From Amoebophrya sp. A120 (Eukaryota; Protista; Dinoflagellata), in the NCBI GenBank assembly GCA_905178155.1, contig CAJINV010000017.1, forward strand, positions 1,686,139 through 1,750,138: DNA of 64,000 bases. The letters are read 5' to 3'. Below the pieces are notes generated by a model, which worked only from the letters and a program-made list of their open reading frames with translations, did no database searches and was not told the DNA's origin. How positions within the stretch are numbered: position 1 is the first letter of the stretch; the number at the start of each line of letters is the position of its first letter. The translations under genes were made by a program, and so were the position numbers. This document shows, piece by piece, positions 7,878 through 56,700 of this stretch.

Positions 7878-10800
7878 TCATCTTGCGCGTCCCGCGCCTC
7901 CTTTCCCACCACCCAGCAGCTGATTTGCGTCCGCAGGTGGCGGCCTCGCGAAATTTTCTTCAAAAAAGAAAAACGCGTCGAAAATGTCCATGTCTTCCGC
8001 CTCATCGCCGACAAACAGGAAATATGAAAGCGCTTCACAAACCCCCTGCTTACCTCCTTTTTTTTTTCGCTTCCACAAGACAGATTTCGCTTCCACAAGC
8101 CAGATGATTCCACGTCCTCTAGGCAGAAGAGCTGCTTGATGGGGTGCAGCATGTTGTGATGCAAACTTGGGCTAAAACTAAAGGAAAAAGGCAACGTCTC
8201 GAATTGTGTTGAAGTTGATATGATGCCTTAGCCTTTCATCGGATCTGCATGACAAATTAGGTGGAGGTAGGACACTAATCGTGCACTCTCATAGCGACCC
8301 GGCCGCCGGGGCCAGAAAGTTGAAGCAGGAAGACGGTAGCATGTTGTCGCCGGACAATCCCCACTTTTCCGCCCCGCCGGGGGCCTCCCACCGGGTACCG
8401 TGAATGACAAGTCCCTCGCCCGCGCCAACTCCGCGGCGACCGAACACGCTACGGAGCTGCCGGACCTGCGTCGCCACTTCCCAGCTGACGACTTTCTCGT
8501 ATTTCCACGAGTGTAGCTGCATCGCCTCGCCGAACGGCCCGATCACATCCTTGAACAGGAAGCGGTGCTTTTCCGGGAAAACCAAAAAGTCCCGAGGTTT
8601 TCGGTAGGCCAATTGCAGTTTCTCGTAGTCGAGGAGCACGCGCGGCTGCTTTTCTCGCAACTCCGCGGTTGCTTCCCCGGTGTCAGCGTAACGAAATTGG
8701 TCGCTGCTGTCGACCATCCACCAGCCACCGCTCCAGGACTTGCCCTCGGCGGTGTCCAAATTTTGCGTGGTGGTTTGCGGCTGTTCGCTTCGCCCGATGA
8801 TGGCGGCGGAAAGGAACCGGTACAGACTCTGTATCAAATGTAAAAATGTCTGGGTCTGGAAGATTCATGCTGTTTTTGCATGACACGGAAGGTCTGGCAT
8901 GGAAGCTCTAGCATCACAGGTTTCGAGAAGCTTCCGCAATGCCGAACCCGCATGAGAAATCCCCCACTTTGGTGACAGAAAGTGGGCAGCTTTTGCTACC
9001 TATGCATGAGAGATTTTTCTGTGTTCGAAAATGCGCATCACAAGTTAGGATCCTTCCAGACCCAGACATTTTTGCATTTGATACTCTGCGTGTCCGCGCA
9101 ACCGACTTTGAACTTGAACGGAGGGGACATTTTCAGGCCGTAATGCAGCGTCAATTCCTCGTCCGAGATCTTCAAGTGCTTGTCGATTTTGCCAGGAAGG
9201 CTCAACTTCCAATAGTGAATCTCGTCGTAGGGGATGCTTCGCCACCTGGACCGCGAGCCTTGGGATATGCACGAGAAAAAGTGCGTCAGTGTAAGTCTGT
9301 GATGCGAACAATAAACATGCAAGTAGAGAGATGCGTCTGTCATGCTGGATATGGATTAGAGAATGAATCAAGTCGAGTAGCGAGCGCGCGTTTTGACGTC
9401 CTATCTGCGCAGGACATGAAGAGGTTTTTGCTTTTATACCGGATAGATTTGAAATGCTGTTCCACCAAGTGACACTTACACACGTGTTTTCTTGGATATG
9501 CGAGGTGAGCTGTGTGGAGGAGAAAAATGTTGACGCGGTGTTGTCATAGTCACGATGCAGGATGCGGAAGCTGGTAAACATATGGAACCGCCAGGAGGCT
9601 CGAAATTAATGACAAGAGTGAACAAGAAAGTAAGGACTTGCAATGCCGATGCATGAAAGGCAGCCAGGCACAGAGTGCCTGTCCTGCAGGAGTTGCAGTA
9701 GGGTCAGAGTCAGAGATGGACGAGCAGCCTGTGAAAATAAAAAATGACAAAAAAAGGTGTCTTTGTTTCCCCAAACAGCATCAGAGATTGGATTTAATAG
9801 GAGCGTCCGAAATTTGTGATGCGCAGCCTCGAGATTCAAGTTGGGTTTCCGATTGGTATCATCTATCTTATGCACTCCAGCAAATTATTTCAACTTTCTT
9901 TGTAGTCCATTTCGAGCACCATGACGCATCCATAAAACAGCAAGATGTCGTGCCGGTTCTGTGCGGTGAAGCCGAAGTGAATCTTTTCACCGGGAAGAAA
10001 CAGGTGCAGCCCAGGATTGTTCTTGTCGTTCTCGCCTCCGCTCGGAGTCGATTCCGTTCCTTCCAAGGTTCGCGCCATCAGAAGCTGCTTGACGGTTTCC
10101 GGTATCAAATGCATATATGTCTGGGTCTGGATGAAGATTCTGAGATTTGTCATGCAGTTTTTCCAAGCTCCGCTAAGTCTGGAATGCAGGGCCTAGCATC
10201 GGAGGATCTGCAGTCGCTTACCCTTTGTGATGCCTGTTCTGCATGAGAAATGCCCTGTCAGCATGACCAGAAATGAGCACCTTTTGCAAGTCACGCAACA
10301 CAGATTTTTGTATGATCCGCAACATGCATCACAAGTTCGCATCCTTCCAGACCCAGACATATTTGCAATGCATATCCGGCTCCTCCTGGTAGTACTGGTT
10401 TGCCAACCACGACTATCGCAAGAAAAAAGTCGTGTTGCAGTTCCACATTGTGATGCTGCAGGACCGGCATGACAGACAACCTTTGTCATGCGCAAAATGC
10501 TTGCGGGCTTGGCTTCATTCATGTTTTCCCGTCTGAGCTCTGCATTGGAAGATTTCTCTGATATGCAAAAAGAGTTTGTAATGTATTTTTGAAGTACATC
10601 AAGTAGTTCTTACAAACAAGTGTGTAACGGTAAAACTTTTTCCCCGGGATAACGACACTCCGGACTGAAACCAGCTGCTCCCCTGTTCGCACACGTGCTC
10701 GTTTTCTTCCACAATGCTCCGCCAGGTTTTCGTATCTTCTTTTGGCGGGGCAACGGCGCCCTTCTTTTCGGATACCCGCGTGAGCCGGAAGGACAAGTAA

Positions 10801-13800
10801 GCGTGTACGGCGATATTGAGAGGAAAAATGCCCCCTCCCCATATTGAAAACGCATTCGTCTGAAAATTTGTGATGCAGATCTGAGGTCACAAATCCTCTG
10901 TGTCTTGCAAGAAGGCAAAGCCAGAGAGTCCGCCGCATAATGCCGGCGGTTTGTGATGCTGTTTGGCTTACAGAGCCGACGTCTGTCATGCTAGTCCCCT
11001 ACGTCAAAACCCCTCGACCCAGGCTTGGCATATGCCTGCAGTCCTCTCCAGCAAGACAGACCTGATTTGTGTACGCAAATCCAGCATCAGAAACTTTGTT
11101 TCGATATGGGGAGGGGGGATTTTTCCCTTTGATAGGCGAGCAAGGACTCACTGCCCCGAAAATCGACCATCACTTCTCTCAGCCCGTTGTTGAAATCCCA
11201 AGCTCTTTAATCGCAGGAAAAAAAGTGGATCGTGTCAGTCTAACGAGTGCAAGCGGACGCGGTGCTGGTCTACGTAAATCTAATTCTTAAGTTCATTTTT
11301 TCATATAATATTGTCCAGAATTACATGCCAGACTACACCCAGCACACGTATCATGTTGCCAACAAGAAAGAATGACGTATGAAAATGAGTGTCCCTTTGA
11401 GGCAACGGAAACGGATTTGATTTCACAGGCTAGATTGTACATGATGTTGACAGTGAAAGGTTTTTTTTTTTCAGCTGCATGACTGAGCATGCAGGGGACA
11501 CGAGAGTGAGACAAATCTTCTGAATGTGTAGGAAATTACTGCGATGTAGTTGTCAGATGATATCTTCTAAAGGAGCGCCAGCAGTTCCGACAGTAAGACT
11601 GACGCAATACTTCCTACTTGTCGGATATCCCGCCGCTCTGCACTCGTCAATATTCGTGCACCATCCAGCGACCGAATTTGCAAATTGCAGCATTTGTCCT
11701 TCACGTTCGCGCAATCCCAGTTCCTGCTTGCTAACCTGCGTGGCTTGCTGCTCGCGTTGCTGCGTCATCAGCGCCTGCGCCCTGGCGGACTCGGCCTGCT
11801 GATGTTGATGCAGTTCTTTCCGAGCGGCCTCATTTGTCCCGGTTTTTCTTGCCGTCTTGTCCCGATGTTGAACGAGATTTTCTTGTTGTTCTCGGTTGTT
11901 CATTGCGATCGTGTTGTCCAACTCCATGAAAGCGTTTCTCAGTGCTGGCGGTTGCTTATGAGAGTGCACAACTCCCCCTTCCCCACATTTGTATAGCATG
12001 AAGATGAACAGCAAAAATTATACAAACACCAGAACACGTGGAGGCTACGCATGACAAATTTGAGTACCTAATGGAGTATACTGTTTCCGTTTGGGCTCCT
12101 TCCGAAATTGGTCATGCAAACAGTGCTACAAGGCAACGACTGAATTTGGCATTTTGCATCACAAATGGGGGGGAATGGGATTTGTGCAATGTCATATTGC
12201 GAAAGAGCATGACGCAGCTCCCGATCCTCATCTTGTCCTTCATGAGCTGGCGACGTATTCGCTACTAGGCCTGTCTGATCAACATCTTCATCCTCGTTTT
12301 TCAGTCCGCCGAGTTGCAGATAGGAGTAGCTCTGTGAGCCCCCCTCCAGAACTTCGGCCACCGATGTGGATACTAAAGAAATCGGCGAAACAGAAGTCGG
12401 GGTTGCGGCCACGATGCTGTCGCCAGTGCGTGGCTCGACCTCCGACGACAGCGGAGAAGTAAGTCCAGCACGGGCTGAAGTTGACGAACTTCGGGAAGAC
12501 GTAGACATTGCGCCCGTCAGATGATGCTCCAACGCAAGATCTTCTGCGTCGTGGTCCTCCGATGGTCGCAGAGTGCTGCTTTTCACCACGACGCCTGCAG
12601 AAGTAGTTGGACTAGCGTGCTTCTGGTTCTTGGCTCCATCGTGGTCTACGACAGCATCATGTTCCACCTCCTTAACCTCGCTGAAAGAGAGGAACGAAGA
12701 AGACACAAAAGCACCCAACAGCTGCACACCCTCTCCAAGCAACTCGAGTCCCGCACCAACTTCCCCTCCCCCGACCCCGTCATGTTCTGGATCCGGAGGA
12801 GGAATGTAGACGCCCGGCACGTATGAAATGCAAAAGTGTCTGGGTCTGGAAGAATGCAAGATTTGTCATGCATATTTCTCATGACCCATGATGCCTGTAA
12901 TCCTTGACCTAGCATCGCAGACTTTTAGAGGGCTTCCTGATGCACCTTCCACATGAGAAATACCCTGTCCGTGTAGCAAAAACTGTACCCCTCTTGCTAG
13001 TCATGCAATACAAATTTTTTTAGAGTCCAAAAACAGCATGACAAGCTGCATTCTTCCAGACCCAGACATATTTGCACTTGATAGCACGTCGGTGGACACG
13101 AAGAGTTCGCCCTCGCTATCGTAAGGAAAAATCCCCCCTCCCAATATCGAGATGAAGTATCTGATGCTGGATTTCCGTACATAAATGCGCGCTGTCTTGC
13201 AGTAAGGCATCGCAGCCAGAAGATCCTCAGCCTAGGTAGGGGCTTTGGGTCTAGTTGTTTCGCACTACAAACGGCTGGCCCCTAGGCCCAACAGCATGCC
13301 AAATCGCTTCCATATTAATGGCGCGAAAGCCTCTGCGCTTGTCTTCTTGCAAGACAGGCGTGATGTATGGTCTCAAGTCAGCAACACAAATTTTCGGAAT
13401 CATACCGTTTCGATATAGGGAGAGGGGATTTTTCCTTTTGATACTCGCCCCAGGGCAACACCTTCTCCGTCGCCGCCTTTTCGCGCAGCGCGAAGGACTG
13501 AATGGCGTTGTAGCCGTATGCAAGAAAAAAACTGTGTTAGTGTAACTCTGTAAGTAATGCAGAACATGCAACAGGTTTACACCTGTCATGCCCCATAGCC
13601 ATGAAGTCCTCTTTTCAACATGTGTGTTTTTCTTACAAGCCACGTATGACAGGTTTTCTCTGTCATGTAGACCGAATTTCTGATGCTGTCAGCCAAAGAA
13701 AGTTAGGTTCACACGGTTTTTTTCTTGCACAAGTCGATGGAAATGTACTGCTCGTTCCCGAGAAACCCGCCCAGCAGGTTTCCAAAATCCACGAGCTTGT

Positions 13801-16508
13801 TGCGCTTGATTACCAGGCGTTTATTCGTGAAGGCGAACATCCCGGTAGCGGAGTCGAAGGCCATGTCCACCGTTTCGCCGGCGTCGGGCGTGAGGAAATT
13901 GTCCAGCATGTCCTGCACGATAGATTTGTCCCGGATTCGAATGCCGTTGTCCAACTGCAAAAGCCAGTCGAAAAAGCCCCCGCTCTATCCAGGAAAAAAC
14001 ACCCATCCACATCCAATTTCTTTGTCATGCAAAACATACATTCATAAAATTCTTATTCTGTGTCTGTCATGCAAAAAATTATATATGGGGATGCGATGAG
14101 TTTTTTTCTGTGGATACGCTCGCCTGCTCCGCACCAGCCCCTCCCGCTTCTCCGTCCACCAACGCCAGCAGCTTGTCGCCCATCTTGGCCGCGGGCGCGT
14201 TGCCCAGGACCCGCCAGGATAGGAGGTGCGTGACCAGCAAGGGGCTGGTGCCCACGCCCCAGAGCGTCTCGTAGCCAAAGGTGGTGCCACCTTCCCCGCC
14301 CCCTCGGATGTTCAGGTGAATGGTGCGCGGGCCGTGCGTATGCATTGCAAATACGTCTGGTGCGTTTAGAGTTGTGATACCGGACAAAAACAAGACCTGT
14401 CAATGTAGTGGATAAATGCATTGGCCGATTCCTGTTCGTTGTTCTCAAGGGCAATTTGTAGTTTACAACTCCAGACGCAGTTTATTTGCCTGTGATAGTG
14501 CGACCCGTCCCCCCGGCTTTCGTAGATTTTCGTGTGAATCACCACGGTACTGTCCCAGTCGAGAAAGGAGCCCGGCGTGTGAAAGGTCCAGGCGCGGACG
14601 GCGGAGTAGAGGTAGGAAATGTAGTTCGCCTTGCCGCCCGTGAGGTGCTTCTCGAGCAGGTCGGGGACGTCCTGCTTGAGAATCCGGTAATTGGTAAAGA
14701 TCACCGCGTCGCGAATGTTGGTATCCAGGTCCACCGCCCCGGCCTCCGACGCCAGCGCGAGTTCGACCCGCTCGTCGTGCAGCAGTACCTTTTTCTCCCG
14801 CAAAATCGCCTGCGTACACGCCGGGTCCACCTGTTTCATGCCCGCCTTCCAGAAGAACAACTGCGTCGTGCTCAGGATCCCGCCGTTCCCGTTGTCGTGG
14901 CCTTTTTGCTTGAAATTTTCCAAGTCACACGGCTCGTGCGCGGCGGCGAACCTCTTGCTGAACCCCGCGGGCTCGGGCAGGTGGAGCGAGTTGGAGGCGA
15001 GCAGCCGCCAGGACAGAAAGTGGTGCAGTTCGAAGGCTTGCTTCACGTCCACGGAAACGTTAATTTGCCGACTGTCAGTTTCCGTTTCCAGGGTGAACTT
15101 GGAGTCCAAATCCAGCCGCGTTCCCACCGGCTCGCTGCACCAGGAAAGAACCGCCGACCACCGCATGGCGCTAAATTTGGTCTGCGGCTGCTCCGTGCCG
15201 ACGGTGTCTTTCCAATAGTACGGCCACCCTTCTTTGACGTTGATGTGCAGGATCTGTATGCAATGCAAAAGCATCGTATTAGTATAATTGCATTACAGAT
15301 TTCCTCAGAATGACAAATGCAATTTGTAATGCTGTTCTACCTTAGGAAGAAGAGTTGCAATGCATATTTGCAATTAGTACGAGTACGATACTTTTGCACA
15401 GAGTAATCTGCTCGCTGGTCCAAAACATGACGTCCTGGCCCGCGGACTGCTTATGGGAGTGTCAGGATTGAAATCGACAAACTTGAAATAACTTGCATCG
15501 CGTAAAATCGATACCAGATGCAAGCCCAGTTTCCTCCAAGCGGTGCATGACAAATTTCGAGACCTTCGAAATCCATTTTGTCATGCTGTTTAGGGACAGA
15601 CGGCGTCTGTTGTCGTGCTGCTTTAGCAGCTCTATCGCAGACCCCAAACAGGCCGACAGTCGGCCTCACTTGGCATCCCTGCAAGAGAGGCGCTTCATGC
15701 CTATGCCTTGCAATTTATGCATGAGAAGTTATTTCATTTTCAACGTTGTCGATTTCAATCCTGACACCCCCATACTTCTCGAAAATGTAGTGCAGTTTTT
15801 CGCCCCGGTCAAGTAATTTCCGGTAGTTCTTCGGGCCTGGCTGCGGGTCGTCATCGCCCGCGCGGCGCGCCTGCATCACGAGGAAAAACTGCTCCACTGC
15901 TTCTTTCTTCTCTTTCATCTTGTCCTGTGGGACGAGATCCCAGATCAACCCAAAGAATTTTCCAGCGGAAGTCAGCACGGATCCACGCAGGTTGCGTTTC
16001 TGAACATTTTGCGTTGGATCGTAGTCGTACCAGAGTTTGCGAATATCACTGTTTGAATATTTAAATTCACCGTAGAGATGAATATGCATCATTCAGATTA
16101 ACATCATCAATCTACAACTACCTCCTGCTGTGCTTGAGAAGTCGCCTGCTTGTTTTCCACGGCCTCATCGAGTCGCCCGATTTCGTGCTGCAACGCGAAG
16201 GCGAAAATGTAAATGGTACTCGTCGTAGTGGGCGGAGTTCGAGTTGGAACAATTCTTGCGCCGTGGTTGACCATCAGCTCGTTGTTCTGCAGCTTTCCTA
16301 TCGTGCTCTTGAATCGGGAAGTAGTAGTAGGGGTGAAAAAACGGAAATGCTCTTCGAGGGGAACAAGGTCGGAAAACAAAAACGCGCCGAGAAAAGCTGC
16401 GGCACAAGACTTCATGGTGAATGTCCAGAAAGCGGCTGCGCACATTGACGAGACCGTGGTCTGCCCAAGGGCAAGGCTCGACTTTGAGCCGCGACTTGAT
16501 AACATCAT
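7878..16508 (-). CDS. Multi-exon protein (~1,400 aa) with about five tandem bacterial-type PH (bPH_1/DUF1696-like) repeats
   Basis: Exons join in frame after removing TIR elements (e.g. ADTQS|LYRF, LLF|TSFRIL, PWGE|GELFVSTDV|PGVY). Repeats such as LLHDERVELAL..IRDAVIFTNYRIL..YISYLYSAVRAW..PGSFLDWDS and LFLPGEKIHFGF..DILLFTSFRIL..SIPYDEIHYW..PG match the bPH_1 pattern. Junctions near 11.2 kb and 16.1 kb and the start codon are uncertain. Confidence 0.7.
8023..8293. mobile_element. Degenerate introner-like intron (family B-like end)
   Basis: Right end GTGCACTCTCATA matches the family B TIR. Flanks GGAAA/GCGAC match poorly, but removing element+5 nt gives AGSL|FVGDEAED in frame. Confidence 0.55.
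8832..9083. mobile_element. Introner, TIR family A
   Basis: TATCAAATGTAAAAATGTCTGGGTCTGGAAG...CTTCCAGACCCAGACATTTTTGCATTTGATA; direct repeat CTCTG/CTCTG; frame restored. Confidence 0.92.
9266..9498. mobile_element. Introner-like intron
   Basis: TATGCACGAGAAAAAG...TTTTCTTGGATA; direct repeat TGGGA/TGCGA; joins LTS|QGSRSRW. Confidence 0.75.
9581..9934. mobile_element. Introner-like intron
   Basis: TATGGAACCGCCAGGAGGCTCGAAAT...ATTTCGAGCACCATGACGCATCCATA; direct repeat AAACA/AAACA; joins LLF|TSFR. Confidence 0.82.
10103..10374. mobile_element. Introner, TIR family A
   Basis: TATCAAATGCATATATGTCTGGGTCTGG...CCAGACCCAGACATATTTGCAATGCATA; direct repeat TCCGG/TCCGG; joins QEEPE|TVKQ. Confidence 0.9.
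10414..10651. mobile_element. Introner-like intron
   Basis: TATCGCAAGAAAAAAGT...ACTTTTTCCCCGGGATA; direct repeat ACGAC/ACGAC; joins GVS|WLANQY. Confidence 0.82.
10814..11134. mobile_element. Introner, TIR family F
   Basis: TATTGAGAGGAAAAATGCCCCCTCCCCATATTGAAA...TTTCGATATGGGGAGGGGGGATTTTTCCCTTTGATA; direct repeat GGCGA/GGCGA; joins SLLA|VHAY. Confidence 0.9.
11208..11627. other. Probable intron, degenerate introner; boundaries approximate
   Basis: AT-rich gap between coding blocks with a weak inverted match (GTCAGTCT near both ends). No clear direct repeat, and the element+5 rule is off by one nt. Confidence 0.4.
11957..12196. mobile_element. Introner, TIR family B
   Basis: TATGAGAGTGCACAACTCCCCCTTCCCCACATTTGT...ACAAATGGGGGGGAATGGGATTTGTGCAATGTCATA; direct repeat TTGCT/TTGCG; joins ALSQ|PPAL. 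Confidence 0.87.
12822..13083. mobile_element. Introner, TIR family A
   Basis: TATGAAATGCAAAAGTGTCTGGGTCTGGAAG...CTTCCAGACCCAGACATATTTGCACTTGATA; direct repeat GCACG/GCACG; joins STDV|PGVY. Confidence 0.92.
13117..13443. mobile_element. Introner, TIR family F (opposite orientation to 10814..11134)
   Basis: TATCGTAAGGAAAAATCCCCCCTCCCAATATCGA...TCGATATAGGGAGAGGGGATTTTTCCTTTTGATA; direct repeat CTCGC/CTCGC; joins PWGE|GELF. Confidence 0.9.
13517..13731. mobile_element. Introner-like intron
   Basis: TATGCAAGAAAAAAACTGTGT...ACACGGTTTTTTTCTTGCACA; direct repeat AGCCG/AGTCG; joins YISI(D/G)|YNAIQSF. Confidence 0.85.
13986..14116. mobile_element. Introner, TIR family E
   Basis: TATCCAGGAAAAAAC...GTTTTTTTCTGTGGATA; direct repeat CGCTC/CGCTC; joins EQAS|GGFFDW. 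Confidence 0.85.
14339..14497. mobile_element. Introner-like intron
   Basis: TATGCATTGCAAATA...TATTTGCCTGTGATA; direct repeat GTGCG/GTGCG; joins DGSH|GPRT. Confidence 0.82.
15257..15405. mobile_element. Introner-like intron
   Basis: TATGCAATGCAAAAGCATCGTA...TACGATACTTTTGCACAGAGTA; direct repeat ATCTG/ATCTG; joins SEQI|LHIN. Confidence 0.82.
15452..15774. mobile_element. Introner, TIR family C
   Basis: TATGGGAGTGTCAGGATTGAAATCGACAA...TTGTCGATTTCAATCCTGACACCCCCATA; direct repeat CTGCT/CTTCT; joins IFE(K/Q)|SAGQ. Confidence 0.9.
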
Positions 16509-32700: not shown

Positions 32701-35700
32701 GTATTGTTCGGGTCGAAAAACTATGAAATGCAAAAGATTCGTAGTACTCCTACTCTGAGTTGTGCAATACATATACAACTTAGCTTAGCATGACACATGA
32801 TATTTGTCATGCTGTTTTACCTTGGAAAGGACATTTGTCAAGCATAGTTGCGATTAGGATTACTACGAGAAGTACGATATTATTGCAATGCATAAAAACT
32901 CCTCCGTCACATTCGGCTTTTGCGTTGCGGCGATCGCAAGGATCTCCTCGTCTGTGAGGATGCGAGATTTGACGCAGGTCTCCCTATTTCCGTCCACCGC
33001 GTTCAAGTCTAGTAAACTGCTGAAATCCGCGGAATTCTTCTCCACCGTCGCGCGCTGGACGATCGACGGCAGCTGCCTCTGCAAAGCAGCCTCGACCACT
33101 TTCTCGACTGAGTACGAAACCGAGTCGAGGTCTGTCGGGAGCGTAGTGGAGTTTTGCTCCGCCAAAGGTAGCATCTTGACCGTGGTCTGTTTTCTCGCGG
33201 TGACCCACTGCTCCTGCTTCCGGTAGTAGATCGGCTCTTGGCCTCTATCCGGGTTCAGGGAGCTGCGGTCTATGATCTCTTCTGCGGTGAACAGAACTGT
33301 TTGTGAATATGTTCCAGATCCGGCGAAAACCTCCCCACCATCGGGATTGTTGTTCATCGCACTTATCACGTTGTTTTTCGTTTCCCGGTTGTTGCAGTGT
33401 TCGGTGGTTTTGAACCAAAAGACATTTTCCATCGGGTTCTGTACGAAACAACCGCAACTCTTGTCATTCAGGCACTTCTTTACCGCGTCTTCGAAATTCA
33501 TGTTGAAGTACGCGTACTGTAAGTCGTACTCGAGATAGATCGGCTCGCAGACCGGGGTGTCATTGAAATTCGTCATATTATCGACTTCTAGTTGCGGGAT
33601 GCAGTTGTTTTCCGTGTAGTTGCTGTCGTTTGATAGCAGTTGCATGGAGATGGACGTCGAAAATTGGCTGGAAATAACTCCTGAAGAACCAGCAGCAGAA
33701 CCTCCACCTCCTCCGACGTGAATCTGTGTTGCCTGCGTCGCGCCGGAGATTGAGGAGGAATAGGCAGACGATCCGGTCGCTTGTGTCGTATTTTGTTGCG
33801 CACCACCAGAAATGGCATCCAAATCTCCGCCAGGGCCGACAACCTCCCCCACGAATCCGACCATCTTGAAGTGCGGAATCCGAATTTTCGCAAATTCGTC
33901 GATCACGTCCGGCCAACTTGTGAAGGTCGTGGTTCGGGTATGGAAGCGGTGAAATCAGGTAGAGTAAAGAGTAGCAGCGAATATCAATTTGCAATTTTTA
34001 TGCAATGTCTTCTAATGCAGAAGCAAAAGCATGGACATCATCACGGAAACATACAAAGATTGACGCGTTGATTTAGTGTGGTAACATTGCAACTTAACTC
34101 GTCTACTGCAACAGAGTGCAAACAGAAACAAGATTTCCCCCGACATAAGTTGTGGTCGTCGACGTCGTCGTGGTTGTCGTTGTGGTCGTCGACGTCAATG
34201 TAAATCCCTCCGGAAAAACCGCCAGCGCTAAAGACTCCCCGGTATCGGTCGTCTGCACCAAATCCATCACCTTCACATCCGCAAAACCGATCGCAAAGGC
34301 ATCCGCACTCGCGGATAACACCGGGTCCGCGGCGATTGCTGTGGTTAACTCAGAGACGATTAACGAGCCAAACGTCTGGAGTTTCGAGTTGATTTCTGAA
34401 CTTATCGCCTCAGCGATGTTCACCAGTGAGGAAACGGAGAAGGACTCGTCCTGCGCCTTCAAGAACGCGTCTTTGTCTCTCGTATACAGCGCGTCCGGCT
34501 CAGCAATGCTGTCGGACTGGCCGACGGAGTTGCGAGAAATGGTCATATCGTACTCGACACTGAGCATCACCTGGGACGTGGAGAGAAGACGCTTGTTCTC
34601 TGCGTCTGATTCTGCTGCTTGTTGATGAAAACCTCCGCTTTGCAGCCTTCTTTTCTTCTTCTTCATTTTCTCCTCCTCATGCTCCCTTTTCTGCTTCGCC
34701 AAGTCCACCTGCGTCCTGACGACGTCGGATACAGCAGCAGCTTCAGATGAGCCCCCGGAATAGAAGTCCTCCCCGCCTGCAACTTCCGCTACTTGCTGCT
34801 TCGCCAACTTCCGCAACACCAGACTCGCTTCGTCGTCCGGGAATAGAGAATCTTCCCGCAGCGGCCGGGCTTCCTGCCGCGTCCGGATTTGCAGGTCCAA
34901 GTCATGGTCCGGCGTCGCCTGGTGGATTTCAAATTTTGAAGATAATTTTGACGGAGCTGATGCGAGGTGCTGTAACCCCCCCAAGTTAAAGCCAGGCTGT
35001 CCACCTCGTCCTCCTCCTTCCTGTAAAAGCGCCCTCGCCCGCAACGTGGCTAAAGACGTCACGACAATTGGCTTCGTCAAATTGAACTGGTTGCAATCTA
35101 GTCCCCCAGCCCCAGTCGCCTGCTGCGTGCTGTTCATGCTGTTCATCGCCTGACAGATCCCCAGCGCGATCGCCTTTTTGAACGCCTGACAGTCGGTAAA
35201 ATTTGCTTCCAAGCTGTTCATCTTCTCCGTCGTGTCGCAATTGTCACTCACCCCCGCTTGCAGACTGACCGCACCGGAGAGGACGATGTCGGAGACCGTG
35301 CTCATACTGACGTTGATAAACCGCAAGTCCGCGTTTTTGTTCAGCAACGTCAACGCATCCTGCTCTTCCGCGATTTTGACAAACGGAGGGGATTGGACGA
35401 CAATGGTTGAAACCGACAAGCCCCGGTTGCACAGTTCGTAGATCCCGCGCGGGAACCGGTACTCAATCACCATAGAAGTCATCAAATCCGCGGTCAACCC
35501 CGCGTAGTACGTGTTGTTCACCTTCACAGGGCCGCCGTACTGCGCCAAGTCTTCCGTTTCCGTGTTGGCCAACGGTTTCGCGCCGTTCATCAATCGTATC
35601 GGGTACTTGCACGCTTTGCACTCGGTTTGTAATTCCGACAAGCACAGGTCGACGAGGGATTGTCCGACTTTCATGTTTTTCCCCAGTAGCTGTAGTTTTT

Positions 35701-38700
35701 CCAAATTCCCAGCGTAGGGAAAAAAAGGCGCTTTGCCGATGCTGTCCGCAACACCGAGAACGCCGTTGATCCAGAAGGTACCGATGTCGATCCAGTACGT
35801 CGTCATATCTTCCTTATCGGTTGTCCAACAGGCACGGTATTCCCTGGCGCGGGTTTTGGACCCCTGGAACAGGCGGTAGTCGACACCAGCAACGCCCGTC
35901 CTGACCTCATCACAGTCATCTTTCGGGGAGATGATCACAATGTCCCCGCCGGAGGGGAGAACTTGCGCGTGGTGGGAGTCTGACTCGATCAGGGACTGTA
36001 TCATGTCGGCAAAGGTGTAGGGCTGTTTAGTCTCCTCTCCTGTTGTTCCCTGATCTACTCCTTCCGATGGGGCACTTTCATGTGATGTCGTCGCCATAGT
36101 ACTAGCACTTCCTTCTCCTCCACCAGCCGGCACCATCATATCCGGGATCGCGTGGTGCGGCCTGTCTGCGACCAGTCCGTCATACTCGAACGGTCGCAGG
36201 ATGTTCTCTTCCTGACTCGCGTAGTTCGGCGTCGGGCCGTGGACGTTGATTGCCGCAACTTTGACCCAGGACCGAGAGACGTTCGCCCGCGCGTAGCAGA
36301 TTTCGTAGTTCAGAGCCTCCATAAACCGGATATCGAAAGGGTAGATCATGATCGATCCGGGCTGGTCTTGCCCAGCCGCGCCGGCAAGTTGCTGACTGAC
36401 AGTTGAGACGTACCCGGGGCCGGAGATGTGTTTGTCGGCAACAACTGTGAGTAAATGCAAATCCGTGGATTCATCAAAGAAGTCTTTCGGTCCTAGCGCA
36501 TCTGTTTGCGTCCTGAAAATCTCCCCGGCTGGAGTCCTCGTCACGTTGATCTGCTGTTCGGTGGTGGTGTTTTGACAAAGAACGGAAGAGGACGACTGTT
36601 CTGAACTGTTTGAACTGTTCGCAGATTCCTCGTCATCCGACGTTGTACTGGTGCAGTTACTTGTTGTGACGTTCTGCGTTTCCAAATACGTCTCCACGTG
36701 CATCTTCAGCAACCACTGCTCACTACTGACATAGGACACCAACTGCTGTTCCGTGCCGCTTGTCGGGGTAAACCGGATTTTTTTACTGTGCGCCTTCGTC
36801 GGGTACCCACAGGGCTCCCCCGCGTCGACGATCTGCAACTCGTCCGAGCTCCGCAGATTGGTGCCGTGCAACACTAACCGATACGGGACACCAGGTAACA
36901 CTAACACTTCCTGATCGTCCAAAAGCGTCGACACTCTCGTGTTGTAGCTGTACGGCATGTGCTTGGTGTTCGTCCGCATAGCACTCGTCAAGTTGTAGGG
37001 GTCGACCAAATCGATTCCGTGGTAGAAGGGACCGGAAAGTGTGAACTCGCCGAGGAGAATTCCCATCCACTTCACTGTGTACCTCCCCCCATAGAGGATT
37101 TTCTGCATGAAACTGCTCTCCTTTCCGGTTAGTTGGTAGTTGACGTCGTAGTGGTTTTCGAAATTCTCAATCTGAACGATCGCATTCTCGCCCACATTGT
37201 AGCCGAGAATCTCGATTTTGATCGGAAGACCGGCGAGGAACTCGGCGTCGACATTTGGTGAAGATGAAACAGCACCCGGTCCCTGCTGCAAAGCCGCCTT
37301 CTCCTGCACCGAGATTTCCAACAAGTTCTGCGTGTCGTTGATAAAAAACTCTTTCGTCACCAACACTTCCGCTTCGATCTGCTCGCCCCACAGGTCCGTC
37401 CTGGTTTTCCGCTGGTACTGCGACAGTTTGAAACCTATCGGCCCGTCGACGTCGAGTCTCCCTGCCTCGATGATCCCGTTCCAGCAGAGCGCCAAATCCC
37501 GCACTCCCAAAGTGAACACCCCGGCCGACCAAGTTCTGGTCGTCGGATACGCGGCGTTTTGGGTCGGGATCACGTTTTGGAGTTGGTAATTGGGAAAAGA
37601 GAAGTCCGGGAGGTCCTGCTGCATGCTGTCCTCCTCGTCGAGGACGGATAAGGTCGAAAAGTCAGCGGATTGTGTCGAAAAGTTCATATCCACTCTGCGT
37701 TTTTTCTCCTTCGTGTACCACTCACAAACCGTTAGGGGAAGAGGCTGCGGCTCGAACAGCGCCAAACCCGTTAGATTCGCCGTCGCGTTGAGCTCGTCGT
37801 CTTCCTGAAGTAAAAGGAAAGAAGAGGTGGTCCCGTTGCTGGTGCCATTTGACGAAGCGTTTGGCGCGTTTGTCGCGTTAGGGTCATGATCCTGCGTACT
37901 AGCATTGAAACCTGTGCCGTTCGTTGTTGCGTTCAAATCTTCGAAAAGGTCCTGCTCAGACACTGTTTCTGTTTCGTTCGTCAAATTCAGTTTTCCCGTG
38001 TTAAATTTCACCAACTCCAACTTCCCCAAAAATTCTCCAAACCCAGACAGCTGCAAAGTGCACTGGAAAGACGCCCGGCACACGTGCTTCTGCTTCAAGT
38101 CCGGTCCGAAGAGCTCGAGCTCCTATCAAATGTAAAAGTGTCTGGGTCTGGAAAGTTGGAACTTGTAATGCGTGTCATGCATTCCTGGAAAATCTGTGTT
38201 GCATGAGCAGCAAAACGGAGGCTTTCTTTGTCATGCAAAAACGCAATTTGTAATGCGTGCTAGGCATCAGCAGACCTCTCAAAAACTTGTCATGCTTGGC
38301 TGCGATTGGAAGCGCTTCAATCATGCGCAATTCAGCATCACAAGTTTCCAGACCCAGACATTTTTACATTTGATAGCTCCCCCTTGGAGACGAATTTCTT
38401 CCCGAATTTTGGCGAATTGTCCCAGGAAGAGGATATCCTGAGTAAAAACGTACCCACACCAGAGCTGTCATGCAAATCTGCATGCCAAAAAAGTTTGTCA
38501 TGCGGAGCGCAATGAGAGGCATTTTCTAGTCGTGTTTTAGAATTTGTGATGCTATAATCCGCATGATATACTAGATCTGTGATGCTGCTGAACTACCTAA
38601 ACAGGATTACACTACGAGGAGAAACTTGTCATGCCAAATGACCAAAGCTGGCTGATTTGTCTAGCAGATTTCCCATCTTGACTCTGGTGTGGGGACGTTT

Positions 38701-41700
38701 TTACTCAGGATAGAGGAAAACAAATCCTCATCGTAGAAATCGTAGAGCGATTTCCTCGTCCCTTGATTCGCCGCAATTGTCAGCGTGTTGTTCTCGTCTG
38801 TGTTCAATACCGCCCCTATCAAGTGCAAAAATGTCTGGGTCTGGAAGAATGCAACGAACTTGTGATGCTGCGTTTGGGTGTCTAAAAATATAGTAAAAAA
38901 ATTGTGTTGCATGAGCAGGAAAAGGATTCTAATTTTTGCTACGCAGAGCGGCACTTGTCATGGGGAATAGGCATCAAGAATCCTTCAAAAAACCTGTAAT
39001 GCTAGGGCATGCATCACAGACATCATGGCTCATGCAAACCGTGCATGACAAGTCTCAGAATCTTCCAGACCCAGACACTTTCGCATTTGATAGCCCCGGC
39101 TCGCCAACAAATCTCGTACTCCCCGACAATCGCCGACATGTTGGTTGTGAACGGCGACTCGTAGAAGAAGTGCACCCCGGAGCAGTCGCACCGCTCAAAC
39201 TCGCAAGACCTTCGCGGTAGGCAGACCTCGCAGTCGCAGGGGTTGAGCCAGCCGGTGAAGGGGAGATCCGGTGGAGGGATTGTGGAGGTCGTGGTAGGGG
39301 CGTCATCTTCGAAGTCATCAGTCGCGTTGGTCGCGTTCGTTTCGTTCACTTCTGTAAATTCTTCTTCTTCGTCGGTGATGTTTGTGCCATTTGTCGTATT
39401 CAGATCATCCTCCTCCACTCCTGTTTCATTCGACTGGTTGCTCGTGGAAGTGGCTGCGAGATACCGGACAAACGCTTCAAAATCGTCGTCCGTTTCTTTT
39501 GGTGGAATGATTTCCACGTTCTCTGGGTGTGGTAGTTCGAAAATCCGGTCCGGGCCGGTGTATACAGATGACGCGGAGTTGTCAGATGTAAAATCAAGTT
39601 CTTCGTCAAAAAACAACCGTCTGCTCGTGCCGTTTTGCACCTGTACCAGGTGAATTCCAGCGCCGCTGAAATTGGTTGCGAAAGTACTGCTTCCGTTGGA
39701 ACTCGTAGTTGTCGTGTTTTCCCCTAGGGAAGAAGATGTTGGCCCAGAGTCGTCGTCATCAAACAGGGAAGATAAACGGCTTCCAGCGCTGGCGTTTGTG
39801 GTATTACCGGAAGATGATGTGTTGAAAGCGCTGAAGTCTTCGTCTTCATCCAACACCGAGGTTCGGGAAGTAAACGTACTTGTTTCATTAGTAACATTGG
39901 TCGCATTCACATCAATCGTGCTATCGACCACAGCCGCCTCCTCCTCCGGCGCGGAAACCACCGTCGTCGTCTCCCCGTCCACACTGACCGCCAGCACCGA
40001 CAGTTTCGCTGGCGTGACCGCAGAAACGGTGAAGTCGCTGGCCAGCGTCGTGTCGTTCGCCACCAGTTCCACGATTTTTGCCTGGAGGACTGTCGCAAAA
40101 TTCCCCAAATTCGTGTTCAAATTCGTCGACAAAGCGTTCGCCTCGGCCTGCGAATCCATTTTTACACGGTAATTCACGTCGAGTTTCACACTCGACGCCG
40201 CCAGTCTCCGCTTCGCCGCCTGCTCCAATCGGACAGCGTTGGACGCCTGCTCGGAAAGACCGGTCAGGGAGTGGAGAATCTGGTCCAGAATACTGGAGGC
40301 GGTGGAAGACGAAGCTGAAGCTTCCTGTTCCGTGGAGTCTACAACTTCGTCGTAGCTATCCGCCGTCCCAGCTACTAACTGCCGCCGCGTCGTTGCGTTC
40401 TGCACATTCACCGACGTCAAGTTCACAGTATTACAGTCCAAAGTCGGCTGCCCGGATTCCTGCAACGTCGTGCACAACCCCGTCGACAACGCGTTCTTGA
40501 AAGCTACACAAGTAACCGAATCAGAATTCATCTCTTCCGTCGTGTCGCACGCTGAGGAAACCGCCGCGGCCATCGCGAAACTGGATTCCAAGAACGTCAA
40601 GGTCGTGTACCCCACACAGACCGCCTGGGCGTGGAAAACGGGTGCGCCGTGTTTTGAATTGCACTTGCCAAAAATCGGCTCGTACTGCTGTAAAATCGGT
40701 TGGTAGAGGGTTGTCATGAGGATAGACTGCTCAGAAACATCAATATCACAAGTAATCTTCCCGCCACACAGAGCATTCAAGTAGTCCACCATCGGCGCGA
40801 CTTGCGACGTGCACGCAGCGTCATTCAAGGCGCACGAAGATTTGTCTGCTTGTCTGCACTGACCGTAGAGGGTGCTCGTCGTATCCTCGTTGCAAACGCC
40901 GTTCACTACCCCAACGGCACCGAACGTAAAATTTCCGATCACGCCTGTGAAAGTCTGCCCAGGGACTGGATTTTCGCAGGAAAATTTTATCGTGTCATTG
41001 ATTGCCTGCGCCGGTTGCGCAGACACACACGCGTAGCCGGCAACCGGCGCGGACGAGGTGGACCCAGAAGTCGTACTACCCGAGGACAGGAGTTGCACCG
41101 TCACCTGTTCTTTCACCCCCCGGAAATTTGCCACTGCCGGCTGCTTCCAGGAATCTGTCATCGAACAGCACGGCCGGAGCTGCTCCGCGTCGGACCTCTG
41201 CAAAATGCCGCCAGCGTTGTCGTAGTGCGCGACTCGGTTCTGCTCGTCCTTGTAGAAATTCTGCAGCTTTCGCATCACGTCGCCCTTGTAGCACGTTTTC
41301 GGCGCCCAGAAAAAACTGTAGTATTGGTCCCCGTCTAACTCAGGTGGAAGTTGACAGGTACTCGACCCAGACCGGGAATTTTTTTTCCTCTTCACCACTT
41401 CGGCGTGGTAGTGGTAAGCGACTTCGGCCGTCGTGCCGGCGCTTGAAGATGTTGTTGAAGATGCGCCAGGATGAACATCAAGCACGTGCGCGTGGCCGCC
41501 GCAGCTGTCTAACGGCAAATCATAGCCGATCACACCGTCGTCCACGTATCGGCCAAACACCGGGAACCCATCTAGCGCCCAACCGAGCTGAAAGGTGTGC
41601 GGATCGATCTTGTCGATGTAATTGTGCCTCGTGTACAGACAGCCGTACGGATCGCCCTGGTACCGGTACTGCCCATTGCTGTTGTCCACGTTCCCACCAC

Positions 41701-50700: not shown

Positions 50701-53700
50701 CCCCTCGACGCCATAATGTTGAAATCGAAACACGGACAACTTCCTGGATGATTTGCCCTCTTGCAAGAGAGGCACGACTTGTGACGACCACACTTCACCA
50801 GCATCACAAATTTTCGGCAGCTGCATCCCGCTTCATCAATATGGGCGGGAGGGGGGCGAACAACTTTTTCCTTGCGATAACCAGGGTGACCCGATCCTCG
50901 TAAATGTTCGTTCCCTGCAGCAGCAGGTCGTCGACAATGCACTGGTTGATCAAGGAATCTCCCGTCTTCAAATTCCCAAAAGTCACGTTCGAAGCGTCTG
51001 CCCCGCCGTAAATGATCTGGGTTGGGAACAAAGCTTCCGTATTGTTGCAGGTGGAGGAGCCGGCAGACCCGATATTTGTTCCATCGTAGTACAAGTGCAT
51101 CCCCGCATCCTCGGAGAGCGCGTAGTTCTTCCTCTGCAGCTCGTACGTGTGGTCTGCGTCACCTAGAAAGTCGTCGCTGATCAAGACGTGCTGCGTGTAG
51201 GTGCCGTTCTCGTTGAAGGTAGATTTGAATTGGTCGTCGAGGAATCGTAACCCCTCAAAGTGTAAATACCCCCGCTCCTTTTTGAAATCGGTCACCTCGC
51301 TGCAGTCGTTTGTGGCGTCAGGTACACAGTTACAAATCGTGTAGATCCCCCCGGCAACAAGTTGCTGCTTGTCGTCCACTGTATCGTACCCCAAGCCCTG
51401 GTAGTCCCACTGCGCACACTTCGACGGGCCGACAAGCAAAGGGGACTGTCCGAACATCTATCCCCGTCTCAACTGTTGCATTCTCAACTGTCAAACGAAT
51501 TTCAATTTGTGATGCTAAACCCACCAGAGCCACAAACTATTAAATGGCTTTGCGATGCAACAATGGCAAAAGGAAAAGTGAAAGACCTTGTGCGTCTTGC
51601 ATCACAGATTTGGCACAGATCAGCAGCCTGTATGGCTCTTCGAGAATTTCGATGTGTCATGCAAAGCAGCTTGATCGTATCGATTCTGATTGTAATTTTG
51701 CATGAGAAATGATTTTGTAACAGTTGAGAATGTAACATTTGAGAATCCCATAACGTCATCTGCTCGGTCGTGTTCAGATACGCACCGGATTTTTGCTTCG
51801 GAAACATCCCGCAGGTCTGCTTCCCGTCTAGCAGCAGCACCAACCCCTGGTCGGGCTGCGTCCGGTTTTGGAATTCCTTCAGATCGTACTCCCCGCCCAG
51901 TTCCTTGCCGAAAGTCCACGACCGAAGTAGGCAGTAAGGCGCGGTGGCGAGACAGGTTTGCACTTCGATGCTAGGCCCGGTGGTGTTGAACCGAAGAACC
52001 ACTTCGTACTCCCGCCTAGTGCTGCTTGCCAGGTGCGTGTTCAGCTTGTAGCAGACCTCGTAGTAGTTTTGTCTTTCCCGGGTGGTCGACCTGGGGAGCG
52101 CCACGTTCTTCCACAAAACGTGCGAGCTGTTGGATGCGGAAATTTGCGCGTGGGTCAAGAGACTTGTCAGGTAGCTGTCGATGTCGTGACAGTCCTGCGT
52201 AATCAGAAATTCGTCGTCCTTCGTTGCCGTGTGTGCGTAATCCCAGTAGTGCATCGTGATTTCAATGTCGATTTTGGTGTCTAGACCCGCGTTGATGGAT
52301 TGCACAGAATTCACGTTCGGGTAATTGCTCGCCGCAGGGACGACACTTCCTGTCGGCGCAAACACATCCACCCGCATCGGGCCCCGGATGTCGATTTTCG
52401 TCAGCTCCCAGGCATCGTAGCCCGTTCTGTCCTTCGTGCTGTTGAAGTAGTTGTACGGGTTTTCCCAGCAGATTCTGTACTCCCCAGCAAAGTTCGCCGT
52501 GATGTATGCAATAGAAATTTCATGCAGGAGCTGCACACGTATTTACAAAATGCGTCACGCATAAGGTCACCGACTTCTTCTAGCACGCCACTTCTTGTCA
52601 TACTGAATAGGATTTTTGAAGGAAAGTCAAAGTGTTACCGTGCACAAAAAGCTGCATTTGTTTTTGTACGTACGTGTACGGCATCAATAAAATCAATCTA
52701 CTGTTGATAGGATGTCTGTAAAGACCAGAAGTGTCCCAGAACTGCTTTCCGCTTGGTAGTAGTCCGTCAAGTACTTCCTGCCGAGAATTTTTTCCCTCGC
52801 CGGGTCTGTACCGTCTATCGCCAATTCGTCCGTCGCGGTGTTAAATTTTCCACCTGCCGTCGCATTCGACTCGCAAGTGACCGGCAACGTCACTGACTCC
52901 AGCCACAAATTGTTGGTAGCAAACGCGTCCGTCAATCCGTAGCCGGTCACCTCCACCCGAAACGTTTCCCGCATCCTCGGCTTGTGCTCCGCCGGGATTA
53001 TTGAAGCGTTGTTCACACCGTGAATGTCCAAATGCCGCACCGCAAAATCCACCCCGGTCTGCAGTCCGGCGACGCACAAACTGTACTCCCCCGCCTCTGT
53101 GTCCGCCGGAATGTTGACGGGCAACAGTTGGTGGACGACCGTGAAATTTTGGTTCAGCATCCACGCGCCCCCGTAGACCGAGTCGTCCCAATCGGACGTG
53201 TTGAACGACCACGGGGTGGCAAGTTGCGTCCCGTTGGCGGCAAGGGAAAGCGCTAGGGAATTCACCGTTGAATCAAACGCGGCGCCGACACCGGTTTCGG
53301 CTGCGCAGTACCCGTACGTGTCAGCGGAATAGTACGTCGCTGGTGTTGTGCTTACTGCTGGGTACGCGCCACTACTACACCTGGAATTGTTGTGTGTCGT
53401 GCTGTTCCGCAAGACCAAGCGGAGCGAATTCACGTCGAGATTGGTCCCCTGCAAGATCAGATCGTCCACCCGGCAGTCGTTGACAAACTCAGTGTTGTCC
53501 TCTACTAGCGACGCGGTGTTTTCGCAATGCGTCTTCGACGCGGATCCGACCTCGTTATTGGTGTACACGCCGGTGAACGCGTAGTTGTTGCTGTTGATGT
53601 CTGTGGTTAACAGACCACCGCCGGTCAACGTATAGGAGGTACTGTCGACAGCTGTTGTAGTTCCTGTAGTTGTGTCGTTTGCAGAAGAAGAACTTGAGTC

Positions 53701-56700
53701 CGCTGGTGTTAAAAACCGCGGCCCTTCGAAGTGTAGGTATCCCCGGAACTCTTTGAAATCATTCAACGCTCCGCAACTCCCGACTTGGCAGTTGCAAATT
53801 GTGTAGATGCTTCCCGCGTTCACCATACCGGTGTCGTTTTCGTTCCCGTACCCCCCGGACAAATAAGAACTTTCCAAATCCAGCACCGTGCAGGGCCTCG
53901 GGCCCACCACCATCGCGTCGACGTTCGTTGTCGTCAGAGCGGCACTGTCAAATTGCCCACAGGTTTGCTGCCCGGGAGCGATTACCCACAAGCCGCGGTC
54001 TTTCGTGCTGCCAAAAGCGGATAAGCCGGAAACGGTGTACACTGCCTTTTCGAAGGACAGTTGGTGAAAAACACACTTCGCGTCCTCAAAGCCACACGTC
54101 TGGATGTTCAACTGCGAGCCGGCCAAGGCGCTGGAATCGGCGATATCGATTAAAACGGTGGCGACTTGAACCGAGGACGTGACGGTCAAGTTAGCCGAAG
54201 AAAGAAACGTGGTCACGGTGCTGTCCTGAAGGATTAAATTTGTGATGCTGGCGGACATGGTGGCCGAGGACAAACTGTCGTTCGTCGCGGCTTGGAAACT
54301 GGTCAAAATCGAGTTCGCAGAGGCTTGGGGTGCGATGATCGTGAAAACAGTGGTTGCAGATGCCGTTGTTTGCGCCAGTTGCCGCCTTGTTGCAGAAGGT
54401 GGTGGATCTTGTTGCTTTCCTTTTTTGCCTTTGATGTCTTTCCCCTTTTTATTCATCTTCCCGGAGGTGCCTTTGTGTTCTTGAGATAATTGCTGAAGAT
54501 CTCCAACTTCTTCTTCTTCTCCCAACAGTCTCCTCGAGATTCCGCTCCACGTGAAAGAGAACGTCGTCGAAACCCCATTTTCGCCACTGCTGCTGGTGCA
54601 ATTCCCCACGTTGCTGAAGGTTCCTGCTTCTATCAACGGTGCACAGGCGACTTCCTTCACGGCCACTTCCAGCGCATTCTTCAAAGCGACCTTCTCCCCG
54701 GCGGAGAGAGAATCCGGGTAATTCAACGAATTCGAAAACGTCGACTCCGCCTTGGCCGTGGTAAACGCCACGTTGGTGATGTTGAAACTGGCCAGCGTTG
54801 TGAAGACCCCGTGCTGCAGTTTGTAGCAAAGCTGGTATTCGGTAACGGAAGCGGTTTCCGCGAGCCCTTTATCGATCGACACTTGACTCCAAACAACCTC
54901 CTGGATCCGGTCGCTGTAGGGGTTGTTCACGTTCGTGGACGCGGACGTGTTTGTTAACACTTGCACCCCGCCAGCCGCGGTGAATACATAGGGCTGGACG
55001 CCCCCGGGGTAAGCGCAGTCGGGTGTGATGAGAAATTCGTCCGTGGTACTGTCGTAAGCGAAGAAAGAAAGCCGGATATCCAACAAATTTGGGTTCAGTG
55101 CGTTCGCCGCGGTGAGCAACAGCGAGCTCGACACATCAAAGTTGTCATGCGCAGAGGTCGTGGATGAGCTCGAACTACTCCCCGCGGGGGCCCCGCTCGA
55201 CGGCGTGAAAAAGTCCACCCGTAGCGGCCCGCGCACTTCGAACTCTGTGAGTTGAAACGTCTGCTCCACTGGGTTAGAAAAGCTGGACAGGAAACACAGG
55301 TGGTACGTGCCCGCGAAGGGGACGGCTAAGTCGGTGTACTGCAGGACTGTGTCGGTCGAGGCGGCGGTGTTGATGAAATCACTTGTCAAATAAACCCGCC
55401 CCAGAACGTCCTGTTTCAAGCTGTCGACCGGGTTCAAATACAGCTTCGAACTGTTGAACTGGGCCAGGTCCGCAGTGCTGTTAAAGTTGTTCGCAAAGTA
55501 CATTTCGTTGTTCATGCAGCTTTGGTTCCCGGACTCGATCCAAAACCTGCCGTCGCGGGAAAATTCGGTGATGTTTAAACCGTTGCCCAGAATTTGAATG
55601 CTGAACTTTTCCGTGATCTTCGGGCTGCTCGGCCCGTTCGGCACGGTTGTCGTGTACTGCATACTCGCGCTGTTCACTCCGTGAATATCGAAGTTGGAGA
55701 TAACGTACTGCTGACCGCTGAACCCGGGGAGGCAAAGCGCGTACTTCCCGCCATTATGAAATGCAAATATGTCTGGGTCTGGAAGAATGCAAGCTTTGTG
55801 ATGCAGGTTTTCCATGACCCATGAGGTCTGGAATGTGAGACCTGGCATGACAGATTCTTTGAGGTCTCTATCATGCCTTTCCTGCGTGAGAAACTCCCTC
55901 TCAACTTGGTCAAAAGCGGACAGCTTTTGGCACTCACGCAACACAGATTTTTGATTTTGCATCATTCAGATTTAGCATGACAAGTTCTAATCTTCCAGAC
56001 CCAGAGGACATTTTTGCATTTGATACCCATTCAAAGTCGACGATACTTGGTATGTGAAGCGGACCCCATCGTTCACCGTGTACTCCAAATCCGAAAGAAA
56101 ATAGGCCGCGCCGGAGTAACTGCTTGTCGGATTCACCACCGCAGCGTCAAACACGTTCACGTGCTGTGGGATCATCCAGAAGGAGGGGGCCAGGGAGGAG
56201 GTCACTTGGGTGCCGAAGGGGGGCAGACGGAGGAAATGGGGCGTATCGTCCGGGCACGTATCGGAATTCTGGAGCGCGGAGACCGTGTAGAGCGTGCCAT
56301 TGTAATTCGTTGTCGCAACTTGTTGCGCAAGCGTGCCGCCGGAGCTGCTGACCGCGGTGTTTGCGCAAATCGCATTGTCGTAGTGGAGACCAGACGCCGT
56401 TTCGCGGTTGACCACCGTCATGGTAGGGCTGTCCGCCGTGAGATTTGCGGTCTGCAGGTTCGTTCCCTGAATCTCAACACTGAAGGAACAGGCCAGGGAA
56501 CCGGACCTCTATGCACAGTAATTAATTTACCGTACAACTACCCGTACAAATTCTGCGCCGGCTTCTGCGGGACAAATGTTAGTTACGCTTCGACCCTCGT
56601 CTGCAGACGCATGAGAAGTGTTTCTGATTCTACTTTAAGATGGCGGAAAAATTTAAGTATTGTCATGCATTTTGTAGGTGGTGTACGGAAAATTTGTAAA

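Follow-up and report, generated by a model that had tools for sequence, protein, structure and literature searches.

Introners of Amoebophrya sp. A120 lie in either orientation relative to their host genes and are probably removed with one copy of their target-site duplication

Introduction

The closest described counterparts of the elements considered here are the introner elements of the dinoflagellate Amoebophrya sp. A120. In the available text of Farhat et al. 2021 (PMC7789003), more than 60% of A120 introns are non-canonical, the inverted-repeat motifs consist of TAT, seven variable bases and three or more A, accompanied by direct repeats of 3–5 nucleotides (nt), and a hairpin that joins the exon ends is proposed. 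Nearly all spliceosomal proteins together with U2, U4, U5 and U6 are reported as present in A120, while U1 was not found (PMC7789003). The DNA analysed here, a stretch of 64,000 nt from contig CAJINV010000017.1 (referred to as the window), has the same organism label, and its elements resemble those of PMC7789003, as far as the text is available, in having terminal inverted repeats (TIRs) that join the ends, the TAT and A-run motif, direct repeats, a division into families, and borders other than GT-AG. For several classes of introner in Polarella glacialis, and earlier in Aureococcus anophagefferens, spliceosomal introns have been described in either orientation, one of the two being favoured (Roy et al., bioRxiv 2020.10.14.339549, available text). 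We here examine how the A120 elements are oriented relative to their host genes, and which sequence is removed with them.

Results

Introner families in both orientations within single genes

Every element in the window reads TAT...ATA between 5-bp direct repeats, or target-site duplications (TSDs), and copies of one family lie both ways round within genes transcribed from the minus strand. The six family A copies listed in a preliminary description of this DNA begin where it had placed them, at 8832, 10103, 12822, 38124, 38817 and 55755. The copies at 38124 and 38817 are inverted relative to the other four, as had been claimed; in self-BLAST and alignment the interiors match only as reverse complements, with alignment scores of 58–95 in the right orientation versus 23–28 in the wrong one, and the 37-mer quoted as an example is located on the plus strand within the copy at 38817. 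The family F copies at 10814 and 13117 also proved to be mutually inverted by self-BLAST and alignments. The description had named a single orientation as the outcome that would speak against it, and the alignments instead show both. Families B (15257+, 32722+, 50226−), C (15452+, 58573+, 9581−) and E (38434+, 56967−, 58224−) too lie both ways in self-BLAST.

The elements were located by a scan for a start near TAT, an end near ATA, inverted ends and a 5-bp direct repeat, which recovers all eight named copies. A stricter scan gives 25 elements in the window versus none in each of three block-shuffled windows. Two candidates were dropped, one at 20843–21192 that has no coding frame across it, and one at 27927–28222 that sits inside an open exon. 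The elements are short, carry TIRs and a TSD of fixed length, and are devoid of coding capacity, as in miniature inverted-repeat transposable elements (MITEs). They repeat as families across the genome, element bins of run X5 greatly exceeding exon bins in depth, and the family A end pattern is absent from the viral contigs scanned. Elements with 5-bp TSDs are linked to integrase-like transposases, a link on which a published passage about A120 family 38 also bears. The introners and their host genes are as follows.

7881..16508, minus strand, host gene 1, equal to public protein P0001 (1420 amino acids), with bacterial-PH-like domains
8832..9083, plus strand (reference orientation), family A introner with 5-bp TSD; 257 nt dropped in P0001
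9581..9934, minus strand, family C introner, inverted relative to 15452 and 58573; 359 nt dropped in P0001
10103..10374, plus strand (reference), family A introner; 277 nt dropped in P0001
10814..11134, plus strand (reference), family F introner; 326 nt dropped in P0001
11957..12196, plus strand, family D introner; TSD mismatch at the first sense base, with the upstream copy kept in the exon (the other would give TAG)
12822..13083, plus strand (reference), family A introner; 267 nt dropped in P0001
13117..13443, minus strand, family F introner, inverted relative to 10814 in the same gene; 332 nt dropped in P0001
13517..13731, no strand given, family J introner; TSD mismatch at position 3, upstream copy kept in P0001
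15257..15405, plus strand, family B introner; 154 nt dropped in P0001
15452..15774, plus strand, family C introner; TSD mismatch at position 3, upstream copy kept; 328 nt dropped in P0001
22994..63944 (about 63944→22994), minus strand, host gene 2, a predicted giant open frame that exceeds 12,000 codons and contains weak internal repeats
32722..32894, plus strand, family B introner in host gene 2
38124..38375, minus strand (inverted), family A introner; excision joins 2157 and 1339 open codons
38434..38712, plus strand (reference), family E introner in host gene 2
38817..39092, minus strand (inverted), family A introner; excision joins 2107 and 1390 open codons
50226..50378, minus strand (inverted), family B introner in host gene 2
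55755..56025, plus strand (reference), family A introner, sharing its host gene with the inverted copies at 38124 and 38817
56967..57270, minus strand (inverted), family E introner with one end mutated
58224..58515, minus strand (inverted), family E introner in host gene 2
58573..58898, plus strand, family C introner in host gene 2

Host genes 1 and 2 both lie on the minus strand, in agreement with the preliminary description. The exon at 8292–8828 is a 100% match to a public protein of 1420 residues labelled Amoebophrya sp. A120 (P0001), which maps from 16508 to 7881 across 17 junctions, 16 of which are introns of the TAT..ATA type and one a GT-AG intron. Host gene 2 runs from about 63944 to 22994. 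After excision of its elements it comprises four open stretches of 1876–3539 codons each, the middle two of which overlap; one finished database search found no homologue or public protein for it, and the internal paralogy of its predicted protein does not reach the family A junctions. Frame breaks occur in this gene near 33955–34150 and 57560–57690.

Removal of both orientations with one duplication

For all eight named copies, removal of the element and one repeat restores the reading frame, as had been proposed, and retained elements introduce in-frame stops in ten of ten cases tested. In host gene 1 this arithmetic can be compared with an annotated protein. For 13 of 13 elements whose ends were fixed before the protein was seen, the intron implied by P0001 equals the element length plus 5 exactly. 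The set includes inverted pairs within the one gene, both members of which are dropped: the family F copies at 10814 (326 nt) and 13117 (332 nt), and the family C copies at 9581 (359 nt) and 15452 (328 nt). The cryptic canonical sites that had been envisaged for one orientation are ruled out here, removal being exactly length plus 5 with no added residues. Transcript and protein alignments formed the basis of the A120 gene models, ab initio tools having failed (available text of PMC7789003), and because the models rest on transcript alignments, P0001 constitutes indirect RNA evidence for removal of both orientations. Two older introns of this gene, at 11209–11627 and 8023–8293, have decayed TIRs and a downstream TSD copy that has drifted at three of five positions, and their removal still fits length plus 5.

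Inverted copies are also found inside intact conserved genes, namely those for KIN17, a SNF2 helicase and an ABC ATPase. The KIN17 gene, in one of the additional loci described below (L037), holds one inverted and two reference-oriented family A copies, and excision of 262, 298 and 267 nt gives the A120 KIN17 protein P0002. The A25 orthologue (P0003) is continuous at the site of the inverted copy. At several residues P0002 and L037 disagree, so that L037 is a close relative of the annotation source and not the source itself, and the comparison, made on sequence, tells what must be removed rather than recording removal. Pfam profiles were examined for 13 inverted and 19 reference-oriented cases, a minority of which gave any match; the profile continues across the inverted copy in KIN17 (1–25, then 29–117) and, in a TCP-1 chaperonin, across a copy in reference orientation (245–341, then 344–438).

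Contigs of run X5 read continuously across four elements of the giant gene. At 55955–56005, run X8 contains about 15 RNA reads in which a family A end is joined to the flank of another locus, which may represent a retained intron, pre-mRNA or DNA.

Orientation in a larger sample

A search with the family A end pattern gave at least 157 loci (L001–L157) on contigs with the prefix JACKZZ01, about half of them with long flanks. The listed loci and the window (hereafter the combined set) hold 363 distinct elements, 283 of which have 120-nt flanks. The host strand was assigned from flanking tiles alone; every one of the 25 window scores is negative, as expected, and 113 of 117 calls agree with junction calls. 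With this caller, family A in the combined set comprises 53 copies in reference and 40 in inverted orientation relative to the host strand (p = 0.21), and the other families give reference to inverted counts, among the matches listed, of 9:5 (F), 6:7 (E), 19:13 (B) and 5:7 (J). A family A orientation bias near 60:40 is plausible.

Both orientations behave alike with respect to the removed length. Removal of length plus 5 scores better than plus 4 and plus 6 in 156 of 188 elements of the combined set, and among the matches listed it is best for 33 of 41 family A copies in reference and 27 of 31 in inverted orientation. Junction coding scores show no difference between orientations (p = 0.55).

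The TSD itself is unevenly placed. Its first base falls at the third codon position in 81 of 168 elements of the combined set (p = 8e-5), and of the mismatches between TSD copies 23 of 39 are synonymous, as are nine of 11 at position 1. This could reflect a target preference or constraint on both copies.

Splice signals, element ends and the position of the cut

Signals were examined in 246 sense-oriented elements of the combined set (247 with a strand call, minus one false candidate), 95 of which belong to family A. A GT-AG placement compatible with exact removal is possible in only 16 of the 246, and any G[TCA]-AG placement in only 31; a single cut position gives such a pair in at most 16, and no fixed dinucleotide pair suits both ends at any cut position. 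Branch-point-like motifs show no sense-strand excess in these elements (19 versus 23 of 246). Within the interiors no 3-mer differs by strand, and differences among 4- and 5-mers do not survive multiple testing. Because both orientations are removed, removal does not depend on the direction of the interior, and the data support the view that this asymmetric segment cannot carry a required polar signal.

The profile of the 5' end and that of the reverse-complemented 3' end are near-identical, with TAT followed by C or G, and A at 84–93% at positions 11–13. The 5' A-run is conserved at 84, 88 and 93% versus 85, 91 and 92% for the 3' T-run, a parity that is also seen at family A ends and in 12 elements identified independently of the TIR. 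An A-run at about positions 11–14 after TAT occurs in six of eight family end consensuses, the remaining TIR being different; the arrangement of TAT, about 7 nt and A-run is clear in families A, B, E, F and J, and family D has two A. Such a motif common to most families is in keeping with its sequence being read by a transposase, by a splicing factor or by both. TIR positions 4–7 are the least complementary (43–74%), which suggests that sequence, rather than pairing, matters at the tip.

The TSD mismatches that are informative place the cut late in the upstream duplication. The exon retains the upstream copy at position 1 in the family D element at 11957 and at position 3 in the elements at 13517 (J) and 15452 (C), and in two older introns the upstream copy is retained at positions up to 3; none of the informative mismatches lies at an inverted window copy and none settles positions 4–5. 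Because these mismatches keep the upstream copy, the last base before the cut is base 3, 4 or 5 of that duplication. Neither codon likelihood nor the GC direction of TSD mismatches located the cut decisively (39 mismatches in one set, 56 in another).

Elements of every family contain the motif GCAT[GC]ACA and its reverse complement, at 16.4 per kb versus 0.68 per kb in exons (combined set). The layout is symmetric on both strands, and 94 of the 152 matches in the window lie within 7.9 kb of elements. The motif may be a transposase-binding or RNA-binding site.

Pairing of the element ends

Strong stems are predicted for either orientation (z −8.95 and −6.52), and because of this, pairing of the ends likely occurs, whether needed or not. 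The older introns of P0001 keep predicted arm duplexes of −18 to −29 kcal/mol versus −12 kcal/mol for the sole canonical intron. In the third of elements with the weakest stems (n = 81), the sense duplex is 1.0 kcal/mol stronger than the antisense one (p = 0.067).

The preliminary description had proposed that recognition relies on the TIR stem and ends and not on polar signals. The part of this proposal that concerns the interior holds, since no polarity is needed there, but recognition that is non-polar or stem-based is not supported. Whichever way round an element with TIRs lies, its 5' end reads TAT, about 7 nt, AAA and its 3' end TTT, about 7 nt, ATA, and because of this a polar reading of the ends fits equally well. 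The stem as recognition signal is unproven.

Discussion

Proposed mechanism and alternatives

We favour, at roughly even confidence, a reading in which these MITE-like introners are likely removed in either orientation, with one duplication, by a modified U1-less spliceosome that reads the end motifs while a hairpin holds the ends. A transposase would insert the elements without regard to strand. As the ends are mirror images, the RNA would always start with TAT(C/G)..AAA and end with TTT..(C/G)ATA, such that the machinery would meet the same two ends either way and its reading could stay polar. The cut would fall late in the upstream duplication (base 3 or later), at a point set by distance from the ends and not by GT-AG. 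The stem would assist, with no selection on pairing detected, and use of the spliceosome is suggested by the gene set reported for A120.

Several observations weigh against this reading. The role of the spliceosome is putative and drawn from gene content. For the inverted family A copies of the window (38124 and 38817), no annotated protein was found for host gene 2. On 38000–57999, RNA reads of X8 and X9 leave the exons uncovered, while those of X1 cover them in scattered pieces at low depth; spliced junctions are not directly seen in reads on this segment, where exon coverage is almost nil. Other strand callers give family A ratios, among the matches listed, of 55:34 (p = 0.03) and 36:16 (p = 0.008), a possible bias. 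The conservation of TAT and ATA is partly built in, since the scan partly requires them; in families C and G the A-run is weak, with no clean run in the consensus; and the shared end motif may be only a transposase site. As for the stem, selection for pairing should make G·U mismatches between the arms outnumber A·C in the transcript, and on the transcribed strand G·U shows no enrichment (203 versus 221 A·C, p = 0.41), nor do sense and antisense arm duplex energies differ overall (p = 0.53). The test is weak, most copies being young and many mismatches predating insertion.

The view implied by the preliminary description is that the stem itself is the signal, for a structure-guided and possibly non-spliceosomal cut-and-ligate reaction measured from the hairpin base, by analogy with the reaction suspected for euglenid nonconventional introns. 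Strong stems in both orientations, the duplexes retained by the older P0001 introns compared with the canonical one, the stronger sense duplex in the weakest third, the free choice of dinucleotides at the cut sites and the failure to find U1 in A120 (PMC7789003) are all consistent with it. We nevertheless consider it somewhat unlikely, given that there is no G·U excess, that the tip of the stem is least paired yet has a sequence common to the families, and that transposition already accounts for the complementarity of the TIRs. Pairing might conversely be irrelevant, with a relaxed spliceosome reading polar sequence from the TIR (UAU at the 5' end; at the 3' end a U-run and AUA resembling a pyrimidine tract) and dispensing with GT-AG, in the manner of Polarella and Aureococcus. 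By the logic of the sequence, symmetric ends would supply identical polar signals either way, spliceosomal introners in either orientation have precedent (available text of bioRxiv 2020.10.14.339549), and no pairing signature was found. Against this, the 3' T-run is conserved no better than the 5' A-run, leaving no trace of polarity, and no branch-point motif is enriched; we judge this explanation unlikely.

Very improbable, in our estimate, is the explanation that one orientation is poorly spliced, or that removal takes place at the DNA level, frame restoration being a trivial undoing of the insertion on paper. Any insertion flanked by a TSD does give frame restoration, and the mild family A orientation bias and the X8 reads with a family A end joined to foreign flank would be in keeping with it. 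However, the transcript-based P0001 drops both orientations of families F and C, inverted copies reside in the intact conserved genes described above, and the X5 contigs cross four elements of the giant gene with no skip.

A bolder proposition, which we regard as rather doubtful, is that A120 removes tens of thousands of introns that need no donor, branch point or acceptor, by means of a factor that reads an end code (TAT..AAA in a hairpin) and cuts at a fixed distance inside the TSD; the GCAT[GC]ACA internal repeats common to all families would perhaps aid the reading of this code. If true, transposon ends would be universal, orientation-blind splice signals, and their use a third kind of nuclear intron removal.

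Orientation-blindness, exact removal of element plus TSD, a late cut in the upstream duplication and shared end motifs confine the signal to approximately the terminal 15–35 nt. A transposon of this type can flood exons at little cost, as insertion on either strand yields an intron. The orientation result alone does not establish a hairpin-reading or non-spliceosomal mechanism.

Other features of the window

The sole apparent plus-strand gene of the window, at 1–1400, has GT-AG-like introns and lacks TAT..ATA elements. At 2894–3095, a GC-rich unit of 39 nt with an internal palindrome occurs three times at a spacing of 65–69 nt. Two long open frames of 502 and 415 codons in the same frame (4421–7177, minus strand) are split by a lone TAG at 5669–5671 with no element nearby; a pseudogene, an assembly error and readthrough are candidate readings. 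A 48-nt sequence is present in three near-identical copies outside recognised introners (17303–17350, 18637–18684 and 19593–19640), the first of which adjoins a partial family G copy. At 39397–40007, an X1 contig with 22 substitutions and several indels relative to the exon is deeper than the exact pieces, and represents a paralogue or a second strain.

Comparison with known introner systems

The element class and the hairpin idea are already published; the orientation result is a useful constraint that was not found stated. The available text of PMC7789003 is silent on orientation relative to the host, on exact removal of element plus TSD, on the cut position within the TSD and on the shared internal motif. 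No statement on the orientation of Amoebophrya introners relative to host genes was found in the available literature text, and the datasets or supplements of PMC12130899 and PMC9860276 may hold it. In what is available of these sources, the pipeline of PMC12130899 required family copies to align 5' with 5', and PMC9860276 allowed opposite-orientation matches.

The introners of Polarella and Aureococcus, in the available text of bioRxiv 2020.10.14.339549, are likewise transposon-derived, bear TSDs and occur in either orientation. They differ in that they carry or recruit G[TCA]..AG sites, one in the element and one from the TSD, whereas only 31 of 246 elements here allow any such pair. Two further systems are described in the accessible portion of PMC11282704. 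The numerous introns of Fritillaria borealis are also TIR- and TSD-bearing, MITE-derived and other than GT-AG, but have dominant AG-AC and AG-AT ends, unlike the elements here, which have no fixed dinucleotide pair. The nonconventional introns of euglenids have a different end consensus and are reported there to be released as full-length circles, and they share with the A120 elements non-canonical borders, a TIR stem, TSD-like repeats and an origin from MITEs.

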